From Escherichia coli 042 (GTDB lineage Bacteria > Pseudomonadota > Gammaproteobacteria > Enterobacterales > Enterobacteriaceae): 64,000 nt of DNA. The position numbers were made by a program, and so were the translations under genes. How positions within the stretch are numbered: the first letter of the stretch is position 1; every line of letters begins with the position of its first letter. The notes under the pieces are model-generated. The model was not told the DNA's origin. It was given only the letters and a program-made list of their open reading frames with translations, and searched no databases. This document shows, piece by piece, positions 25,228-31,414 of this stretch. The stretch is from the NCBI RefSeq assembly GCF_000027125.1, contig NC_017626.1; one strand, written 5' to 3'.

Positions 25228-25404
25228 TTACGTTTGAATATTGCTTGAAAGGGTAATCACCTCACAGGAAATTATTGCCCTAAGCAAGTGTTGTAACTTT
25301 CTGCTGATTTTGTAGAATCGGGTAATTTGGTTAAAAAGCCGCAGCAAGGGACAATTTTTGCAGCGGTACAGCGTTCAGATAGTTATTTTGTTAAATGTAT
25401 TAAC

Positions 25405-27753
25405 ATGCTGAGTTTATACGAAAAGATAAAGATAAGGCTGATAATTTTATTTTTATTGGCAGCACTGTCATTTATTGGTCTTTTTTTCATCATTAACTAT
25501 CAACTGGTATCGGAGCGCGCGGTAAAACGTGCCGATAGCCGCTTTGAACTTATTCAGAAAAACGTTGGCTATTTCTTTAAAGATATTGAACGTTCGGCCC
25601 TGACATTAAAGGACTCACTGTATTTATTAAAAAATACAGAGGAGATTCAACGCGCCGTGATTCTTAAAATGGAAATGATGCCATTTTTAGACTCGGTGGG
25701 ACTGGTACTTGATGATAATAAATATTATCTCTTTTCGCGGAGGGCGAATGATAAAATCGTAGTTTATCATCAGGAACAAGTAAATGGACCGCTTGTCGAC
25801 GAGTCAGGGCGGGTTATTTTTGCCGATTTTAACCCATCGAAACGACCGTGGTCGGTGGCTTCAGATGACTCTAACAACAGCTGGAATCCGGCATACAATT
25901 GCTTTGATCGTCCGGGTAAAAAATGTATCTCTTTTACGCTACACATCAACGGCAAAGATCACGATTTGTTAGCGGTGGATAAAATTCATGTCGATTTAAA
26001 CTGGCGATATCTGAACGAGTATCTTGATCAAATCAGCGCTAATGATGAAGTTCTATTTTTGAAACAAGGCCATGAGATCATTGCCAAGAATCAACTCGCG
26101 CGTGAAAAACTGATTATTTATAATAGCGAAGGTAATTATAATATTATTGATTCTGTCGATACTGAATATATCGAAAAAACATCAGCGGTGCCAAACAACG
26201 CATTATTCGAAATCTATTTTTATTATCCTGGCGGTAATTTATTGAACGCATCAGATAAACTTTTTTATCTGCCGTTTGCTTTCATTATTATCGTATTGCT
26301 GGTGGTTTATTTAATGACCACTCGTGTGTTCCGTCGGCAATTTTCTGAAATGACAGAGCTGGTTAATACGCTGGCGTTTTTGCCTGACTCAACGGATCAA
26401 ATCGAGGCTCTGAAAATTCGCGAAGGCGATGCGAAAGAGATTATCAGCATCAAAAAATCGATCGCGGAAATGAAAGATGCCGAAATTGAACGGTCAAATA
26501 AATTGCTCTCACTGATCTCTTACGATCAGGAAAGCGGTTTTATTAAAAATATGGCGATTATTGAGTCCAACAATAATCAGTATCTGGCTGTGGGGATCAT
26601 CAAACTGTGTGGTCTGGAAGCCGTGGAAGCGGTGTTTGGTGTTGATGAACGCAATAAAACCGTCAGGAAATTGTGTCAGCGAATTGCCGAGAAATATGCG
26701 CAATGCTGCGATATCGTGACATTTAATGCCGATCTCTATTTACTTCTGTGCCGGGAAAATGTACAGACATTTACCCGTAAAATAGCGATGGTAAACGATT
26801 TTGACAGCAGCTTTGGCTACCGCAATCTGCGCATCCATAAGTCTGCCATTTGTGAACCTTTGCAGGGGGAAAACGCCTGGAGTTACGCAGAAAAACTGAA
26901 ACTGGCGATTTCCAGCATCCGTGACCATATGTTCTCAGAGTTTATTTTCTGTGATGACGCGAAACTCAACGAAATAGAAGAGAATATCTGGATTGCGCGT
27001 AATATTCGCCATGCAATGGAAATTGGCGAACTATTCCTGGTCTATCAGCCGATCGTTGATATTAACACCCGCACCATTCTGGGCGCGGAGGCGTTGTGCC
27101 GTTGGGTGTCTGCGGAGCGGGGGATCATTTCACCGCTAAAGTTCATTACCATTGCTGAAGATATCGGGTTTATCAATGAGCTGGGTTATCAGATTATTAA
27201 AATGGCAATGGGTGAATTCAGGCATTTTAGCGAGCGTGCGGTTCTGAAGGACGGTTTCTTACTGCATATTAATGTTTCGCCCTGGCAGTTAAACGAACCA
27301 CACTTTCATGAGCGTTTTACCACCATCATGAAAGAAAACGGTCTGAAGGCGAACAGCCTCTGTGTTGAGATCACTGAAACCGTGATCGAGCGAATTAATG
27401 AACATTTTTATCTCAATATTGAACAACTGCGTAAACAAGGGGTACGGATATCGATTGATGACTTTGGCACCGGTTTGTCAAACCTGAAACGTTTTTATGA
27501 AATTAATCCAGATAGCATAAAAGTGGACTCGCAATTTACCGGCGATATTTTCGGTACTGCGGGAAAAATTGTGCGCATTATTTTCGATCTGGCACGCTAT
27601 AACCGGATTCCGGTGATTGCGGAAGGCGTAGAGAGCGAAGATGTTGCGCGCGAATTAATCAAATTAGGATGTGTTCAGGCTCAGGGGTATCTGTACCAGA
27701 AACCCATGCCATTCTCCGCCTGGGATAAAAGTGGAAAATTAGTAAAAGAGTAG
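25405..27753 (+). CDS. pdeI: c-di-GMP phosphodiesterase PdeI (YliE), 782 aa: N-terminal TM/periplasmic sensor region plus EAL domain
   Basis: Start trimmed to [13 protein letters not shown]-terminal EAL-domain signatures (EALCRW..., DDFGTG..., QGYLYQKP); visibly AT-rich coding sequence. Confidence 0.9.
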
Positions 27754-27760
27754 TTTACGT

Positions 27761-29089
27761 ATGTCCAGAATCAATAAGTTCGTACTTACAGTCAGTCTGC
27801 TGATTTTTATCATGATTTCAGCAGTTGCCTGCGGGATCTACACTCAAATGGTAAAGGAACGGGTGTATGGCCTGAAACAGTCCGTTATTGATACTGCTTT
27901 TGCGGTGGCAAATATTGCTGAATATCGGCGTAGCGTGGCAATTGATCTCATCAACACGCTAAACCCCACGGAGGAACAGCTGTTGGTTGGCTTGCGCACA
28001 GCTTACGCCGACTCGGTTTCACCCTCTTATTTGTACGATGTCGGTCCTTATCTGATTTCCAGTGACGAATGTATTCAGGTAAAGGAGTTCGAGAAAAATT
28101 ATTGTGCAGATATTATGCAGGTTGTGAAGTATCGACATGTCAAAAATACAGGGTTTATCTCTTTTGACGGTAAAACTTTCGTCTATTACCTCTATCCGGT
28201 AACTCACAATCGCAGTCTGATATTTTTGCTTGGTCTGGAGCGTTTTTCTTTACTGTCAAAATCGCTGGCGATGGATAGCGAGAACCTGATGTTCTCTCTG
28301 TTTAAGAACGGTAAACCGGTGACCGGTGATGAATATAATGCTAAAAACGCCATCTTCACCGTTTCGGAAGCGATGGAGCACTTCTCCTATTTGCCGACCG
28401 GATTGTACGTATTTGCGTATAAAAAAGATGTTTATTTGCGGGTTTGTACGTTGATTATTTTCTTTGCCGCATTGGTGGCAGTGATATCGGGTGCCAGTTG
28501 CCTCTATCTGGTACGCAGAGTGATTAATCGTGGTATTGTGGAGAAAGAAGCCATTATTAATAACCATTTTGAACGCGTACTAGATGGCGGGCTTTTCTTT
28601 TCGGCTGCCGATGTCAAAAAACTCTACAGTATGTATAACTCGGCGTTCCTGGACGACCTGACTAAAGCGATGGGCAGAAAATCCTTTGACGAAGATTTAA
28701 AAGCGCTACCGGAAAAAGGTGGTTATTTGTGCCTGTTTGACGTCGATAAATTCAAAAACATCAACGACACCTTCGGTCATTTGCTGGGCGATGAAGTGTT
28801 GATGAAAGTGGTGAAAATCCTTAAATCACAGATCCCGGTAGATAAAGGTAAAGTCTACCGCTTCGGCGGTGACGAATTTGCGGTGATTTATACGGGTGGA
28901 ACGCTGGAAGAGTTGCTATCGATTCTAAAAGAAATCGTTCATTTCCAGGTGGGAAGCATTAATTTAAGCACCAGTATCGGTGTAGCGCATTCAAATGAAT
29001 GTACTACCGTCGAACGCTTGAAAATGCTGGCGGATGAGCGGCTGTATAAGAGTAAGAAAAACGGCAGGGCGCAGATTAGCTGGCAGTAG
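27761..29089 (+). CDS. dgcI: Diguanylate cyclase DgcI (YliF), 442 aa
   Basis: Membrane/sensor N-terminus plus GGDEF domain (RFGGDEFAV); AT-rich. Confidence 0.9.
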
Positions 29090-29106
29090 AATTAGAATAG
29101 TGTTAG

Positions 29107-29130
29107 TACCCCTTAATCAAGGGGTACTAA
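29107..29130. repeat. Perfect hairpin palindrome agtacccctt-aatc-aaggggtact between convergent dgcI and the antitoxin gene
   Basis: 10-bp perfect stem with 4-nt loop read from the sequence; sits between the stops of convergent dgcI (29089) and the antitoxin (29159). Confidence 0.5.
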
Positions 29131-29158
29131 TGAATGTGGTAAATCATTTGCAAACATT

Positions 29159-29488
29159 TTACTTTGCAAAAACTTCCGGTCCTTTTATTGCCAATGTATT
29201 CAAAATACGTAGTGCCGGGCCGCTCGGTTTTATTTCATTTCGTTCCCATTTCGAGACACTTTCTTTTGACATTCCCATTGTATGTGCCAGCACGGATTGT
29301 GACATGCCGTATCGGGTGCGGATGGCTTTGATCTCTTCACCCGTCATTGATTTGACTTTGGCTATACGGGCGCTGACTTCACGAGCTTTGACCATGACGG
29401 CAATGGCATCAACTTCACTATCAGACATCAGGCCCAGTGCATTCAGTTCCTTTGCATCTTCCAGCATCATTTGTAATTTATCGCTCAT
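29159..29488 (-). CDS. HigA-2-like antitoxin with C-terminal XRE-type HTH domain (109 aa)
   Basis: MSDKLQMMLEDAKELN...EIKAIRTRYGMSQSVLAHTMGMSKESVSKWERNEIKPSGPALRILNTL: HTH followed by the W-E-x-x-x-x-P-S-G-P-A signature remembered from HigA-2/YiaG-like antitoxins; ATG overlaps the upstream toxin 3' end by 11 nt. Confidence 0.8.
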   Translation of the reverse strand: MSDKLQMMLEDAKELNALGLMSDSEVDAIAVMVKAREVSARIAKVKSMTGEEIKAIRTRYGMSQSVLAHTMGMSKESVSKWERNEIKPSGPALRILNTLAIKGPEVFAK

Positions 29489-29864
29489 TTTTCACCTCAA
29501 TCAAAAAGCCAGTTTCGATCAAATCCTCTATTTGCTTATTGCTAAAGGCCAGAAATGCATTTGCCATTTTTTTGTAGGCCACCAGTTCATCATCTTCGAT
29601 TTCTTTGGTTCCTTTACTGCTTAGACCACTCTTGGACCAACCATCATAAAAAAACACATGATTTGCTGATTTAAAAAAGATAATTGTTCTGGCTCCACCA
29701 CTCTTTCCTTGTTGGAGGGGTAAACGTTTTTTGATGACACCGCTACCTAAATCAGCCTCCCATATGCCTTGCATCACTTCTTCAGCGGCAGCCATGAGAA
29801 CTTTATCGTGAATACCAAGTTTTTTCGTGCTTTGGCTGAATCGTCTTGCCTTATACACACCCAT
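29478..29864 (-). CDS. HigB-2-like (RelE-fold) type II toxin, putative ribosome-dependent mRNA interferase (128 aa)
   Basis: MGVYKARRFSQ...QQGKSGGARTIIFF...FFYDGWSKSG...IEDDELVAYKKMANAF: GK-GG-R-I-F ... K ... L core resembles Vibrio HigB-2-type toxins (from memory); toxin-first arrangement with translational overlap to a downstream HTH antitoxin. Confidence 0.8.
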   Translation of the reverse strand: MGVYKARRFSQSTKKLGIHDKVLMAAAEEVMQGIWEADLGSGVIKKRLPLQQGKSGGARTIIFFKSANHVFFYDGWSKSGLSSKGTKEIEDDELVAYKKMANAFLAFSNKQIEDLIETGFLIEVKNER

Positions 29865-29879
29865 ACATCCATCCTTGTG

Positions 29880-29916
29880 GTAATGTTTACTATAGTAACC
29901 ATTACGCTTATTTCAA
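29880..29916 (-). promoter_or_regulatory. Putative sigma70 promoter (-35 TTGAAA, 16 nt, -10 TATAGT) of the toxin-antitoxin operon with overlapping operator palindrome
   Basis: Minus-strand read: TTGAAA(29916-29911)-N16-TATAGT(29894-29889); imperfect palindrome GTAATGnTTACTATAGTAAnCATTAC (29880-29905, 2 mismatches) spans the -10. Confidence 0.5.
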
Positions 29917-30040
29917 GTAATTGCGATCAAAACTTTAATTTGGTGTGAAAAAGTGAGAGTTGCCTCGAGTATGATTCATTTTTCTCGATTTATACGTCAG
30001 GGGATTTTGTGCGTAAGGGTAGGACATGGGAAGGGTAGCA

Positions 30041-30078
30041 GAGGCAGATCGAAGAACAATATCCTTGTTAGATCTGCC
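30041..30078. repeat. Interrupted inverted repeat aggcagatc...(aacaa-tatcc-ttgtt)...gatctgcct just downstream of rimO
   Basis: Read from the sequence; possible rimO terminator hairpin and/or right boundary of the toxin-antitoxin cassette. Confidence 0.4.
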
Positions 30079-30088
30079 TTTAGATTAA

Positions 30089-31414
30089 TTAAACCCGGCT
30101 ACCCCACAAATCGTACTCATCGGCGTGCTCGACTTTCACACGCAGGATATCACCTGGCTTAACGTTGGTTTCACCATTGAGATAAACCGCGCCGTCGATT
30201 TCCGGTGCATCTGCCATGCTGCGACCAATCGCGCCTTCTTCGTCCACTTCGTCGATAATCACCAGAATTTCACGGCCCACTTTCTCTTGCAGGCGCTCGG
30301 CGGAAATCTGCTGCTGCAGCTGCATGAAACGGTTCCAGCGTTCTTCTTTCACTTCTTCCGGAACCTGGTCAGGCAGGGCATTGGCGTCCGCACCTTCAAC
30401 CGGGCTGTATTTAAAGCAGCCAACGCGATCCAGACGTGCTTCTTTCAGGAAGTCGAGTAGCATCTGGAAATCTTCTTCCGTCTCGCCAGGGAAGCCGACA
30501 ATAAAGGTTGAGCGTAAGGTCAGTTCCGGGCAGATTTCGCGCCACTGTTTGATGCGCGCCAGTTGGCGATCTACAGAACCCGGACGCTTCATCAGTTTGA
30601 GAATGCGCGGGCTGGCGTGCTGCAACGGAATGTCCAGATACGGCAGGATTTTGCCTTCTGCCATCAGTGGGATGACGTCGTCCACATGCGGATAAGGGTA
30701 AACGTAGTGCAGACGTGTCCAGATCCCCAGTTTCGATAACTGTTCGCACAGGCTGACCATGCTGGTTTTTACCGGCTCGCCGTTGTGGAAGCCAGTACGA
30801 TGTTTAACATCGACGCCATAGGCGGAAGTATCCTGCGAGATCACCAGAATCTCTTTAACGCCCGCATCAACCAGACGTTTAGCTTCACTTAACACTTCGC
30901 CGATCGGACGGCTCACCAGGTCGCCGCGCATAGACGGAATAATGCAGAAGGTGCAGCGGTGATTACAGCCTTCCGAAATTTTCAGATAGGCATAATGACG
31001 CGGCGTCAGTTTCACACCTTGTTCTGGCACCAGGCTCAGGAATGGGTTGTGTTTCGGTTTTGGCACGTAGTGATGAACGTGCTCCAGAACCTGCTCATAG
31101 CTATGAGGCCCGGTGATTTCCAGCACTTTCGGGTGGACTTCGCGGATCTGATCTTCTTTTGCCCCCAGACAACCGGTCACAATTACCTTGCCGTTTTCAT
31201 TCAACGCTTCACCAATGGCTTCCAGTGATTCTTGTACCGCGCTGTCAATAAAGCCGCAGGTGTTGACGATCACCATGTCCGCATCGTCATAGCTCGGTAC
31301 CACGTCATAACCTTCAGTGCGTAGTTCGGTGAGAATACGCTCTGAATCGACAAGGTTTTTCGGACAGCCAAGGGAAACAAAGCCGATTTTCGGCTGGGGA
31401 GTTACTTTGCTCAT
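30089..31414 (-). CDS. rimO: Ribosomal protein S12 methylthiotransferase RimO (441 aa)
   Basis: [20 protein letters not shown]...; radical-SAM CxxxCxxC (CNHRCTFC) and MiaB-like architecture. Confidence 0.95.

Follow-up and report, generated by a model that had tools for sequence, protein, structure and literature searches.

Two described toxin–antitoxin systems most closely resemble the gene pair reported here. ToxP/AntitoxP (CBUA0028/CBUA0027), from the Coxiella burnetii plasmid QpH1, is a toxin-first overlapping operon that acts in plasmid maintenance, and its toxicity, inhibition of translation, rescue by the antitoxin and promoter binding have been shown experimentally (PMC10098735). AntitoxP has its helix-turn-helix (HTH) at the C terminus and represses its own promoter, while the K79E substitution in ToxP abolished toxicity in E. 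coli (PMC10098735). The second system, HigB-2/HigA-2 of Vibrio cholerae (VCA0468/0469; PDB 5JA8, 5JAA and 8A0X; PMC5416850, PMC11006873), is located in the superintegron. Its 110-residue toxin, VcHigB-2, belongs to Pfam PF06296 (PMC11980606) and uses K49, R51, R64, Y82 and K84 as catalytic residues (PMC5416850, PMC10098735), with substitution of Tyr82 by Ala causing a 1200-fold loss of activity. The antitoxin, VcHigA-2, binds a single inverted repeat that extends over the −10 box (PMC11006873). By analogy, the pair described here may also share with E. coli K-12 RelBE and with the HigBA modules of Rts1 and K-12 a RelE-superfamily fold, presumed cleavage of mRNA in the ribosomal A site, and an autorepressed two-gene operon (PMC5416850). 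The toxins of these latter modules fall in other Pfam families (PF05016, PF05015 and PF09907). RelBE is antitoxin-first, with an antitoxin of the ribbon-helix-helix type.

In E. coli 042 a gene pair with the organization of the ToxP operon, but chromosomal and at a fixed site rather than plasmid-borne, is located between dgcI and rimO. The window, which is the complete 64,000-nucleotide stretch of contig NC_017626.1 that was analysed, contains two minus-strand ORFs that overlap by 11 nt and occupy the 999-bp gap between the two flanking genes (Table 1), as the sequence-only reading of this DNA had described. The antitoxin gene starts 11 nt inside the toxin gene and has its own GAGG ribosome-binding site. 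Overlap of the two genes is also evident in related loci (8 nt in L005 and 4 nt in L006), and the proposed toxin-first, overlapping arrangement is upheld. The ORF pair is not a chance occurrence, as both proteins display significant matches to known families and the pair recurs in related loci; in 75 of 80 cases the toxin relative is followed immediately, on the same strand, by a homologue of the antitoxin. The only other ORFs of at least 40 codons in the cassette are short frames that overlap the toxin or antitoxin gene, and an Rfam search of positions 28900–30300, at E values up to 1, returned no match, showing that the spacers contain no known RNA element. These data, in combination with the analyses of the two proteins presented below, support the view that the pair is a chromosomal type II toxin–antitoxin operon of the HigBA2 (Pfam PF06296 ‘RelE’) family, a reading to which we assign a probability of roughly 85%. 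Literature searches, which included the RefSeq accessions, the Sakai locus tags and the terms DUF1044 and COG4737, uncovered no experimental study of this E. coli pair; we infer its toxicity, its cleavage of RNA, its dependence on the ribosome and its binding to DNA by analogy with the systems above.

Table 1. Features of the dgcI–rimO interval, in window coordinates.
Feature	Position	Strand	Details
Flanking gene dgcI	27761..29089	+	
Cassette-specific segment replacing the K-12 spacer	29090..30083	.	Alignments to MG1655
13-bp-stem hairpin	29102..29131	.	Between the convergent dgcI and antitoxin stops; + strand −24.4 kcal/mol, z −5.98; − strand −18.7 kcal/mol, z −3.9
Antitoxin gene	29159..29488	-	109 aa, ATG start; ORF list
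Toxin stop/antitoxin start overlap	29478..29488	-	ATGAGCGATAA, 11 nt; read off sequence
Toxin gene	29478..29864	-	128 aa, ATG start; ORF list
Shine-Dalgarno of antitoxin gene	29495-29498	-	GAGG; read off sequence
Shine-Dalgarno of toxin gene	29872..29876	-	AAGGA; read off sequence
26-bp palindrome, candidate operator for antitoxin dimer	29880..29905	.	GTAATGGTTACTATAGTAAACATTAC; inverted repeat, 13-nt arms, no gap
Predicted sigma-70-like promoter	29889..29916	-	−35 TTGAAA (29916-29911), 16-nt spacer, −10 TATAGT (29894-29889); consensus scan, 10/12 matches
Hairpin directly past the rimO stop, in cassette-specific DNA	30042..30079	-	Inverted repeat; fold −16.4 kcal/mol, z −3.2
Flanking gene rimO	30089..31414	-	

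The toxin matches PF06296 across the complete model (E 2.7e-32, 112 bits; query residues 1–124, model positions 1–120 of 120), a domain that is present in all of its database relatives. This was the only Pfam match at E ≤0.001, with none to the three families that house the RelBE and HigBA toxins, and no NCBIfam family matched the protein. In RefSeq it is annotated as ‘type II toxin-antitoxin system RelE/ParE family toxin’, and its counterpart in O157:H7 Sakai, ECs_5400, is labelled ‘addiction module toxin RelE’. The toxin aligns with ToxP over the full length of the protein (36% identity, E 5e-24), and both retain the basic catalytic residues. A single-sequence phmmer search against PDB sequences gave nothing at E values up to 1, and a profile was therefore required to reach VcHigB-2. 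The profile, built from 21 toxin homologues, matched VcHigB-2 with an E value of 2.4e-5, aligning GGvikkR...GKsGGaRtiiFF of the homologues (G53-K-S-G-G-A-R-T-I-I-F-F64 in the toxin) with GGLRKIR...GKRGGSRIIYYF. The AF2 model of the toxin (pLDDT 86.6, pTM 0.82), when compared with the PDB using Foldseek, identified VcHigB-2 as the best structural match, with its chains filling the top nine places (E down to 1.8e-4, TM 0.44–0.65), followed by YafQ, Streptococcus pneumoniae HigB, BrnT and ParE. The earlier assignment of the protein to the HigB-2-type toxins of RelE fold is consistent with these data; the relation is at the level of profile and fold only, with ∼15% identity in the structural alignment.

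The catalytic residues K49, R51, R64, Y82 and K84 of VcHigB-2 align with K45, R47, R59, W76 and K78 of the toxin, while K79 of ToxP aligns with K78. Thus, the four basic residues of VcHigB-2 are all conserved, and none of them varies among the 75 aligned sequences. The fifth, Tyr82, is replaced by Trp76. All 75 sequences have an aromatic residue at position 76 (W in 31, F in 39 and Y in 5), demonstrating that tyrosine does not characterise the family as a whole, and Trp is standard across the entire Enterobacterales clade (31 sequences). ToxP, in contrast, has Tyr at this position and a short loop after the catalytic Lys, a loop that is around five residues longer in the E. coli toxin. The AF2 model and alignment indicate that the additional length of the protein compared with VcHigB-2 likely comprises a longer loop after K78, following strand β4, and the second of two predicted C-terminal helices. 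Although this size had been viewed as the possible mark of a distinct subfamily, that proposal is rejected as the Pfam model (120 positions) and the homologues (mostly 124–132 aa) are equally long, and it is VcHigB-2 that is short. What survives of the suggestion is that the toxin is part of an Enterobacterales branch that has diverged and has Trp where VcHigB-2 has Tyr82.

Replacement of the catalytic Tyr could also be viewed as evidence that the toxin is dead and that the pair is a decayed remnant, in which the HTH protein is left as a small transcription factor. Chromosomal toxin–antitoxin modules often decay, some E. coli genomes contain truncated toxin genes of 73–122 aa (P0013, P0025, P0038 and P0052), and one genome (H20) has only a partial cassette. 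The toxin in the window, however, is full length, its basic catalytic residues are those that never vary, its Trp is typical of its clade, and at least 80% of the cassette is kept in 1128 of the 1138 genomes that carry it. Furthermore, dN/dS is 0.07 for the toxin and 0.08 for the antitoxin when compared with L005, and 0.12 and 0, respectively, within E. coli, values that reveal purifying selection on both genes. Decay is thus a very unlikely explanation.

The antitoxin displays an N-terminal segment (approximately residues 1–46) followed by a C-terminal XRE-type HTH (residues 53–94), the same layout as VcHigA-2 and AntitoxP. The HTH matches Pfam HTH_3 (E 3.4e-9, residues 53–94), and residues 47–106 align with residues 38–96 of the VcHigA-2 chain in the PDB (E 5.7e-4), confirming the view that the protein is a HigA-2-like XRE antitoxin. 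Alignment of the N-terminal part with AntitoxP begins at residue 10, and the two proteins, which are 33% identical (E 2e-12), may by analogy perform the same repressor function. The WE...PSGPA signature reported previously is present, as W-E-R-N-E-I-K-P-S-G-P-A, with five rather than four residues separating its two elements. For the antitoxin, NCBIfam models score below their curated cut-offs (NadS, NF041265, 36.7 against 60; the MqsA family, TIGR03830, 47.1 against 61.8; PRK10072, 26.7 against 110), and these alignments cover only the HTH part.

Matches to phage protein families (phrog_2104 for the antitoxin, E 6.6e-17; phrog_5869 for the toxin, E 1.7e-5), and the discussion of RelE/ParE-superfamily toxins as defence toxins (PMC11980606), speak for anti-phage abortive infection, rather than addiction or a stress response, as the main role of the module. 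No PADLOC defence model matches the toxin, however, and the module was accordingly not filed as a known defence system; the PADLOC matches of the antitoxin are confined to generic HTH models. The locus is positioned outside defence islands, next to housekeeping neighbours, and the literature examined contained no data that tie PF06296 modules to phage defence. A primarily anti-phage function is therefore improbable.

The regulation of the toxin–antitoxin operon may be similar to that of VcHigBA2. A single predicted promoter ahead of both genes suggests that they are expressed as one toxin-first transcript; the promoter is a consensus match only, and the number of sites in the scan was no higher than in shuffled sequences. 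A 26-bp palindrome is centred on the predicted −10 box and occurs once in the window, where none is expected by chance. Most of the 23 Enterobacterales loci that were compared have the motif, GTAATNNTTACTATAGTAANNATTAC, at the same place relative to the start codon of the toxin homologue (−41 to −16), although its flanks differ between these loci. The palindrome is thus likely the operator. Like the VcHigA-2 operator, the candidate is a single inverted repeat over a −10 box, here a predicted one, but the sequences are different (TGTACGC-N5-GCGTACA in VcHigBA2 compared with GTAATNNTTAC-TATA-GTAANNATTAC in E. coli). Downstream of the operon, the hairpin between the convergent dgcI and antitoxin stops is likely a bidirectional terminator, a role that we infer as the structure has no strong T-run.

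Homology to HigB-2 and ToxP suggests that the toxin has a RelE-type ribonuclease fold and would enter the ribosomal A site and cleave translating mRNA, with K45, R47, R59 and K78, together with the aromatic W76, mediating catalysis. On the model of HigA-2 and AntitoxP, the antitoxin would wrap its N-terminal segment around the toxin and block its access to the ribosome, while the C-terminal XRE HTH would dimerise and bind the single palindrome over the −10 box, leading to autorepression of the operon by the antitoxin alone or with the toxin as co-repressor. When the supply of antitoxin stops, free toxin would halt translation.

The cassette is missing from K-12, as the sequence-only reading had anticipated. 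In MG1655 the spacer between dgcI and rimO is only 46 bp; homology to K-12 ends at window position 29088/29089 and restarts at 30084. The K-12 spacer displays no significant similarity to the cassette, and a remnant of it within the cassette is ruled out as the best local score of 12 is inside the range of shuffled sequences (mean 9.7, maximum 15). Among 5426 complete E. coli genomes, 1138 (21%, or about one in five), including O157:H7, ST69 and ATCC 8739, contain the cassette, while 4283 (79%) have the K-12-type junction. The module is therefore a presence/absence polymorphism in E. coli, in agreement with its earlier description as strain-variable content. One dgcI protein allele was found both with and without the cassette, indicating that recombination shuffles the alleles. 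An insert between ybjP and ybjQ occurs in 1128 genomes, close to the number that carry the cassette; strict linkage of the two was rejected, as strain 23CRST031 contains the insert and a compact K-12-type dgcI–rimO junction.

The cassette had been described as ‘inserted’, which probably assigns the wrong polarity to this polymorphism. If the cassette had instead entered an ancestral compact dgcI–rimO junction by recent horizontal insertion and then spread among E. coli lineages by recombination, this would fit the sharing of a dgcI allele by carriers and non-carriers, the occurrence of relatives on Moellerella, Providencia, Xenorhabdus and Coxiella plasmids, and the lack of a match in the scanned genomes that represent other Escherichia species, Shigella and Salmonella. 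The GC content of the cassette (0.408) is also below the window mean (0.50). It is lower than that of rimO (0.528), but the difference from the neighbours that was previously noted does not extend to dgcI (0.438) and pdeI (0.415), which are equally AT-rich. No target-site duplication, integrase, transposase or terminal repeats were found at the cassette, nor any meaningful direct repeats at its borders, and the two junction alleles are unrelated sequences rather than an insert and an empty site. Across distant E. coli lineages the cassette has diverged to the same extent as the flanking core genes (1.50% from O157:H7, compared with 1.06–2.25%). In two other genera homologous modules, in the same orientation, occupy the equivalent gsiD–rimO/bssR interval, adjoining gsiD in Enterobacteriaceae UBA5654 (beside rimO) and in Kluyvera sichuanensis (beside bssR). 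Values of dS, all near saturation, are 1.98 for the toxin and 1.62 for the antitoxin, similar to those of rimO (1.22) and gsiD (2.0). Both the core-like divergence and the shared gene order in two further genera point, indirectly, to long residency followed by loss, and recent insertion is the less likely history. The module is thus probably an old resident of the gsiD–rimO interval that has been replaced by the 46-bp spacer in most lineages, although the scan-negative genomes of other Escherichia species are also compatible with gain within E. coli.

It is conceivable, but rather improbable, that the Enterobacterales PF06296 branch forms a functionally separate sub-branch of the HigB-2 toxins, perhaps with a long-held site by rimO that predates the split between Escherichia and related genera. 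The traits that might define such a sub-branch are the replacement of the catalytic Tyr by Trp, the longer loop of about five residues after the catalytic Lys and the predicted second C-terminal helix. If this were correct the sub-branch could differ in codon or cleavage preference, or in ribosome docking, and long residence beside rimO would hint at a domesticated, rather than selfish, role. A functional tie to rimO, whose product modifies ribosomal protein S12 close to the decoding centre, is speculation.

Nothing about the module's family, fold, gene order or regulatory logic is new, and the pair is annotated by RefSeq in over 1,100 E. coli genomes; little is thus at stake for new biology. 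The module is, however, an uncharacterised HigBA2-type system in important lineages such as O157:H7, ST69 and ATCC 8739, and its absence from K-12 makes the latter a clean test host. The conserved 26-bp palindrome provides a ready operator hypothesis. More generally, the locus looks like a chromosomal toxin–antitoxin module that has long occupied its site and been lost repeatedly, rather than one newly inserted, which bears on how such modules persist.

The two overlapping minus-strand genes that the sequence-only reading placed between dgcI and rimO were recovered at exactly the positions it proposed, sharing 11 nt (ATGAGCGATAA). The pair is absent from the same site in K-12 MG1655, as that reading had held: the convergent dgcI and rimO are there 46 bp apart, the spacer being a hairpin. 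Homology between the window and K-12 stops at the dgcI stop codon and restarts at window position 30084, 5 nt ahead of the rimO stop. As no similarity was detectable between the K-12 spacer and the 999-bp segment (the cassette), the two are alternative, unrelated alleles rather than a filled and an empty site. No meaningful repeats were seen at the cassette borders, and the only ORFs of at least 40 aa within it are the pair itself and short ORFs overlapping the pair. The GC content of the cassette (0.408) was thought to be lower than that of its neighbours, which holds against rimO (0.528) but not against dgcI (0.438) and pdeI (0.415), to which it is close. In the ORF listing pdeI (window 25327-27753) is extended to begin at a TTG and is 808 aa long, compared with 2349 bp (782 aa) in the K-12/O157 annotation; this is an artefact of the listing and no real difference from these strains.

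Features of the dgcI-rimO interval, in window coordinates
Feature	Position	Strand	Description
dgcI	27761..29089	+	one flank of the toxin-antitoxin pair
Hairpin	29102-29131		strong (z -6); separates the stop codons of the converging dgcI and antitoxin genes
Antitoxin ORF	29159..29488	-	109 aa
Toxin ORF	29478..29864	-	128 aa
Palindrome	29905-29880		26 bp, GTAATGGTTACTATAGTAAACATTAC; centred on the -10 box
Predicted promoter	29916-29889	-	sigma-70-like, TTGAAA, 16 nt, TATAGT; sequence match
Second hairpin	30042-30079		after rimO
rimO	30089..31414	-	other flank of the toxin-antitoxin pair

The toxin matched the whole of Pfam model PF06296 ('RelE'; 1-120 of 120, E 2.7e-32), the family to which proteins named HigB-2 belong (PMC11980606), and no other toxin family. 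A single-sequence search of PDB sequences gave no match; a profile built from 21 homologues (alignment A1) did match Vibrio cholerae HigB-2 (VcHigB-2; E 2.4e-5). The best nine PDB matches to the AlphaFold model of the toxin (pLDDT 86.6) were VcHigB-2 chains (TM 0.44-0.65), followed by YafQ, S. pneumoniae HigB, BrnT and ParE. These data bear out the proposed RelE/HigB assignment. The catalytic residues of VcHigB-2, K49, R51, R64, Y82 and K84 (PMC5416850, PMC10098735), correspond in the profile alignment to K45, R47, R59, W76 and K78 of the toxin. In an alignment of 75 sequences, the window toxin plus 74 recovered by a genome scan, all four basic residues are invariant and an aromatic residue always occupies position 76 (W in 31, F in 39, Y in 5); W76 is found in the window toxin, 29 Enterobacterales loci and a single contig bearing a Paenochrobactrum MAG label. 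The closest tested relative is the Coxiella plasmid toxin ToxP (36% full-length identity, E 5e-24), whose toxicity in E. coli is abolished by the K79E mutation (PMC10098735); K79 aligns with K78 of the window toxin.

At 128 aa the toxin had been considered large for its family, but its size is normal: the PF06296 model has 120 positions, homologues are mostly 124-132 aa, and VcHigB-2 (110 aa) is the short member. The additional length is a loop, modelled with low confidence, that follows K78 and spans 8-9 residues in the Enterobacterales clade against 4 elsewhere; a second C-terminal helix is also predicted in the model. The toxin is thus one of a diverged Enterobacterales branch, yet no family outlier. 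Shortened toxin genes (73-108 aa; protein clusters P0013, P0025, P0038 and P0052) occur in some E. coli strains, and one genome (NZ_CP172816.1, H20) contains only about half of the cassette, fused towards dgcI, both suggestive of toxin decay among a minority of carriers.

An HTH_3 match covers antitoxin residues 53-94 (E 3.4e-9), and the alignment to VcHigA-2 pairs residues 47-106 with its residues 38-96 (E 5.7e-4), consistent with the XRE-type antitoxin originally suggested. Coxiella AntitoxP is 33% identical from residue 10 on (E 2e-12). The NadS, MqsA-family and PRK10072 models were rejected, matching the HTH part alone with scores under the curated cut-offs. The ∼46 residues N-terminal to the HTH lie where HigA-2 has its disordered toxin-binding region (PMC5416850).

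The motif GTAATNNTTAC-TATA-GTAANNATTAC, or a close variant, lies at a constant distance from the start codon in most of the 23 Enterobacterales homologue loci whose upstream regions were compared, and the DNA around it is unrelated between loci. It is unrecognisable in two of these, both from Chimaeribacter (L029 and L034), and occurs once in the 64-kb window, where the chance expectation is none. VcHigA-2 likewise binds a single inverted repeat, which begins downstream of the -35 box and covers the -10 box (PMC11006873). We take the 26-bp palindrome to be the likely operator for the antitoxin. There were no Rfam matches in the cassette region.

When one genome per species was scanned for relatives of the toxin, 80 loci were returned, 75 of which have an antitoxin homologue directly downstream on the same strand. 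The dN/dS values for toxin and antitoxin, respectively, were 0.07 and 0.08 against the module of Enterobacteriaceae UBA5654 (74% identical), and 0.12 and 0 against O157:H7; strong purifying selection acts on both genes. One locus, a 1198-bp contig (L004) from a MAG labelled Collinsella sp., holds a toxin and antitoxin 99% and 100% identical to the E. coli cassette together with the dgcI 3' end (100% identity); this Actinobacteria MAG has almost certainly acquired the contig from E. coli through mis-binning.

The cassette is strain-variable, as anticipated: out of 5426 complete E. coli genomes, 1138 carry it, almost all as a single chromosomal copy; the K-12-type junction occurs in 4283, and the two states cover all but a handful. 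Carriers include O157:H7, ST69, ATCC 8739 and HS. RefSeq names the toxin 'type II toxin-antitoxin system RelE/ParE family toxin' and the antitoxin 'helix-turn-helix domain-containing protein' (ECs_5400 and ECs_5399 in Sakai). A second K-12-absent segment, between ybjP and ybjQ (57620-60167, 2.5 kb, AT-rich, GC 0.334), contains a 600-aa ORF (58216..60018, + strand; RefSeq 'pentapeptide repeat-containing protein') with weak PF13599 matches (E 2e-4). It occurs in 1128 of the 5426 genomes, a number near that of the cassette, but strict linkage to the cassette was rejected. A 153-bp segment found between rlmC and artJ in K-12 (899665-899818) is missing at window 53017-53034; an 85%-identical copy lies at window 10012-10163, so the segment probably represents a dispersed intergenic repeat element.

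The description of the cassette as inserted probably has the wrong polarity. A recent insertion would fit the lack of a match in the representative genomes of other Escherichia species scanned, and one dgcI protein allele occurs both with and without the cassette, so recombination shuffles the two states. However, the cassette differs from that of an O157:H7 genome by 1.50%, inside the range of flanking core genes (1.06-2.25%), and like-oriented homologous modules are flanked by rimO, with an additional ORF, and gsiD in UBA5654 (L005 3001-3706) and by bssR and gsiD in Kluyvera sichuanensis (L006 3001-3707), the pair directly adjoining gsiD in both. The dS values against UBA5654 are similar, all near saturation (toxin 1.98, antitoxin 1.62, rimO 1.22, gsiD 2.0). 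Together, core-like divergence, synteny and dS favour an old resident of the interval, replaced in most E. coli lineages, over a recent insertion. As pdeI-dgcI is absent from both loci, these c-di-GMP genes, like the toxin-antitoxin pair, are variable content of the interval across genera.

These data confirm the toxin-antitoxin observation and support its interpretation as a HigB-2/HigA-2-like module. Annotation of the genes already exists, and work in V. cholerae and Coxiella has characterised this known family well (PMC5416850, PMC11006873, PMC10098735); a literature search found no published work on the E. coli pair, which is uncharacterised. The absence of any PADLOC match for the toxin leaves a defence role as no more than a possibility. 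By analogy with its homologues, the toxin would cleave mRNA in the ribosomal A site, the N-terminal segment of the antitoxin would neutralise it, and the operon would be autorepressed at the 26-bp palindrome.
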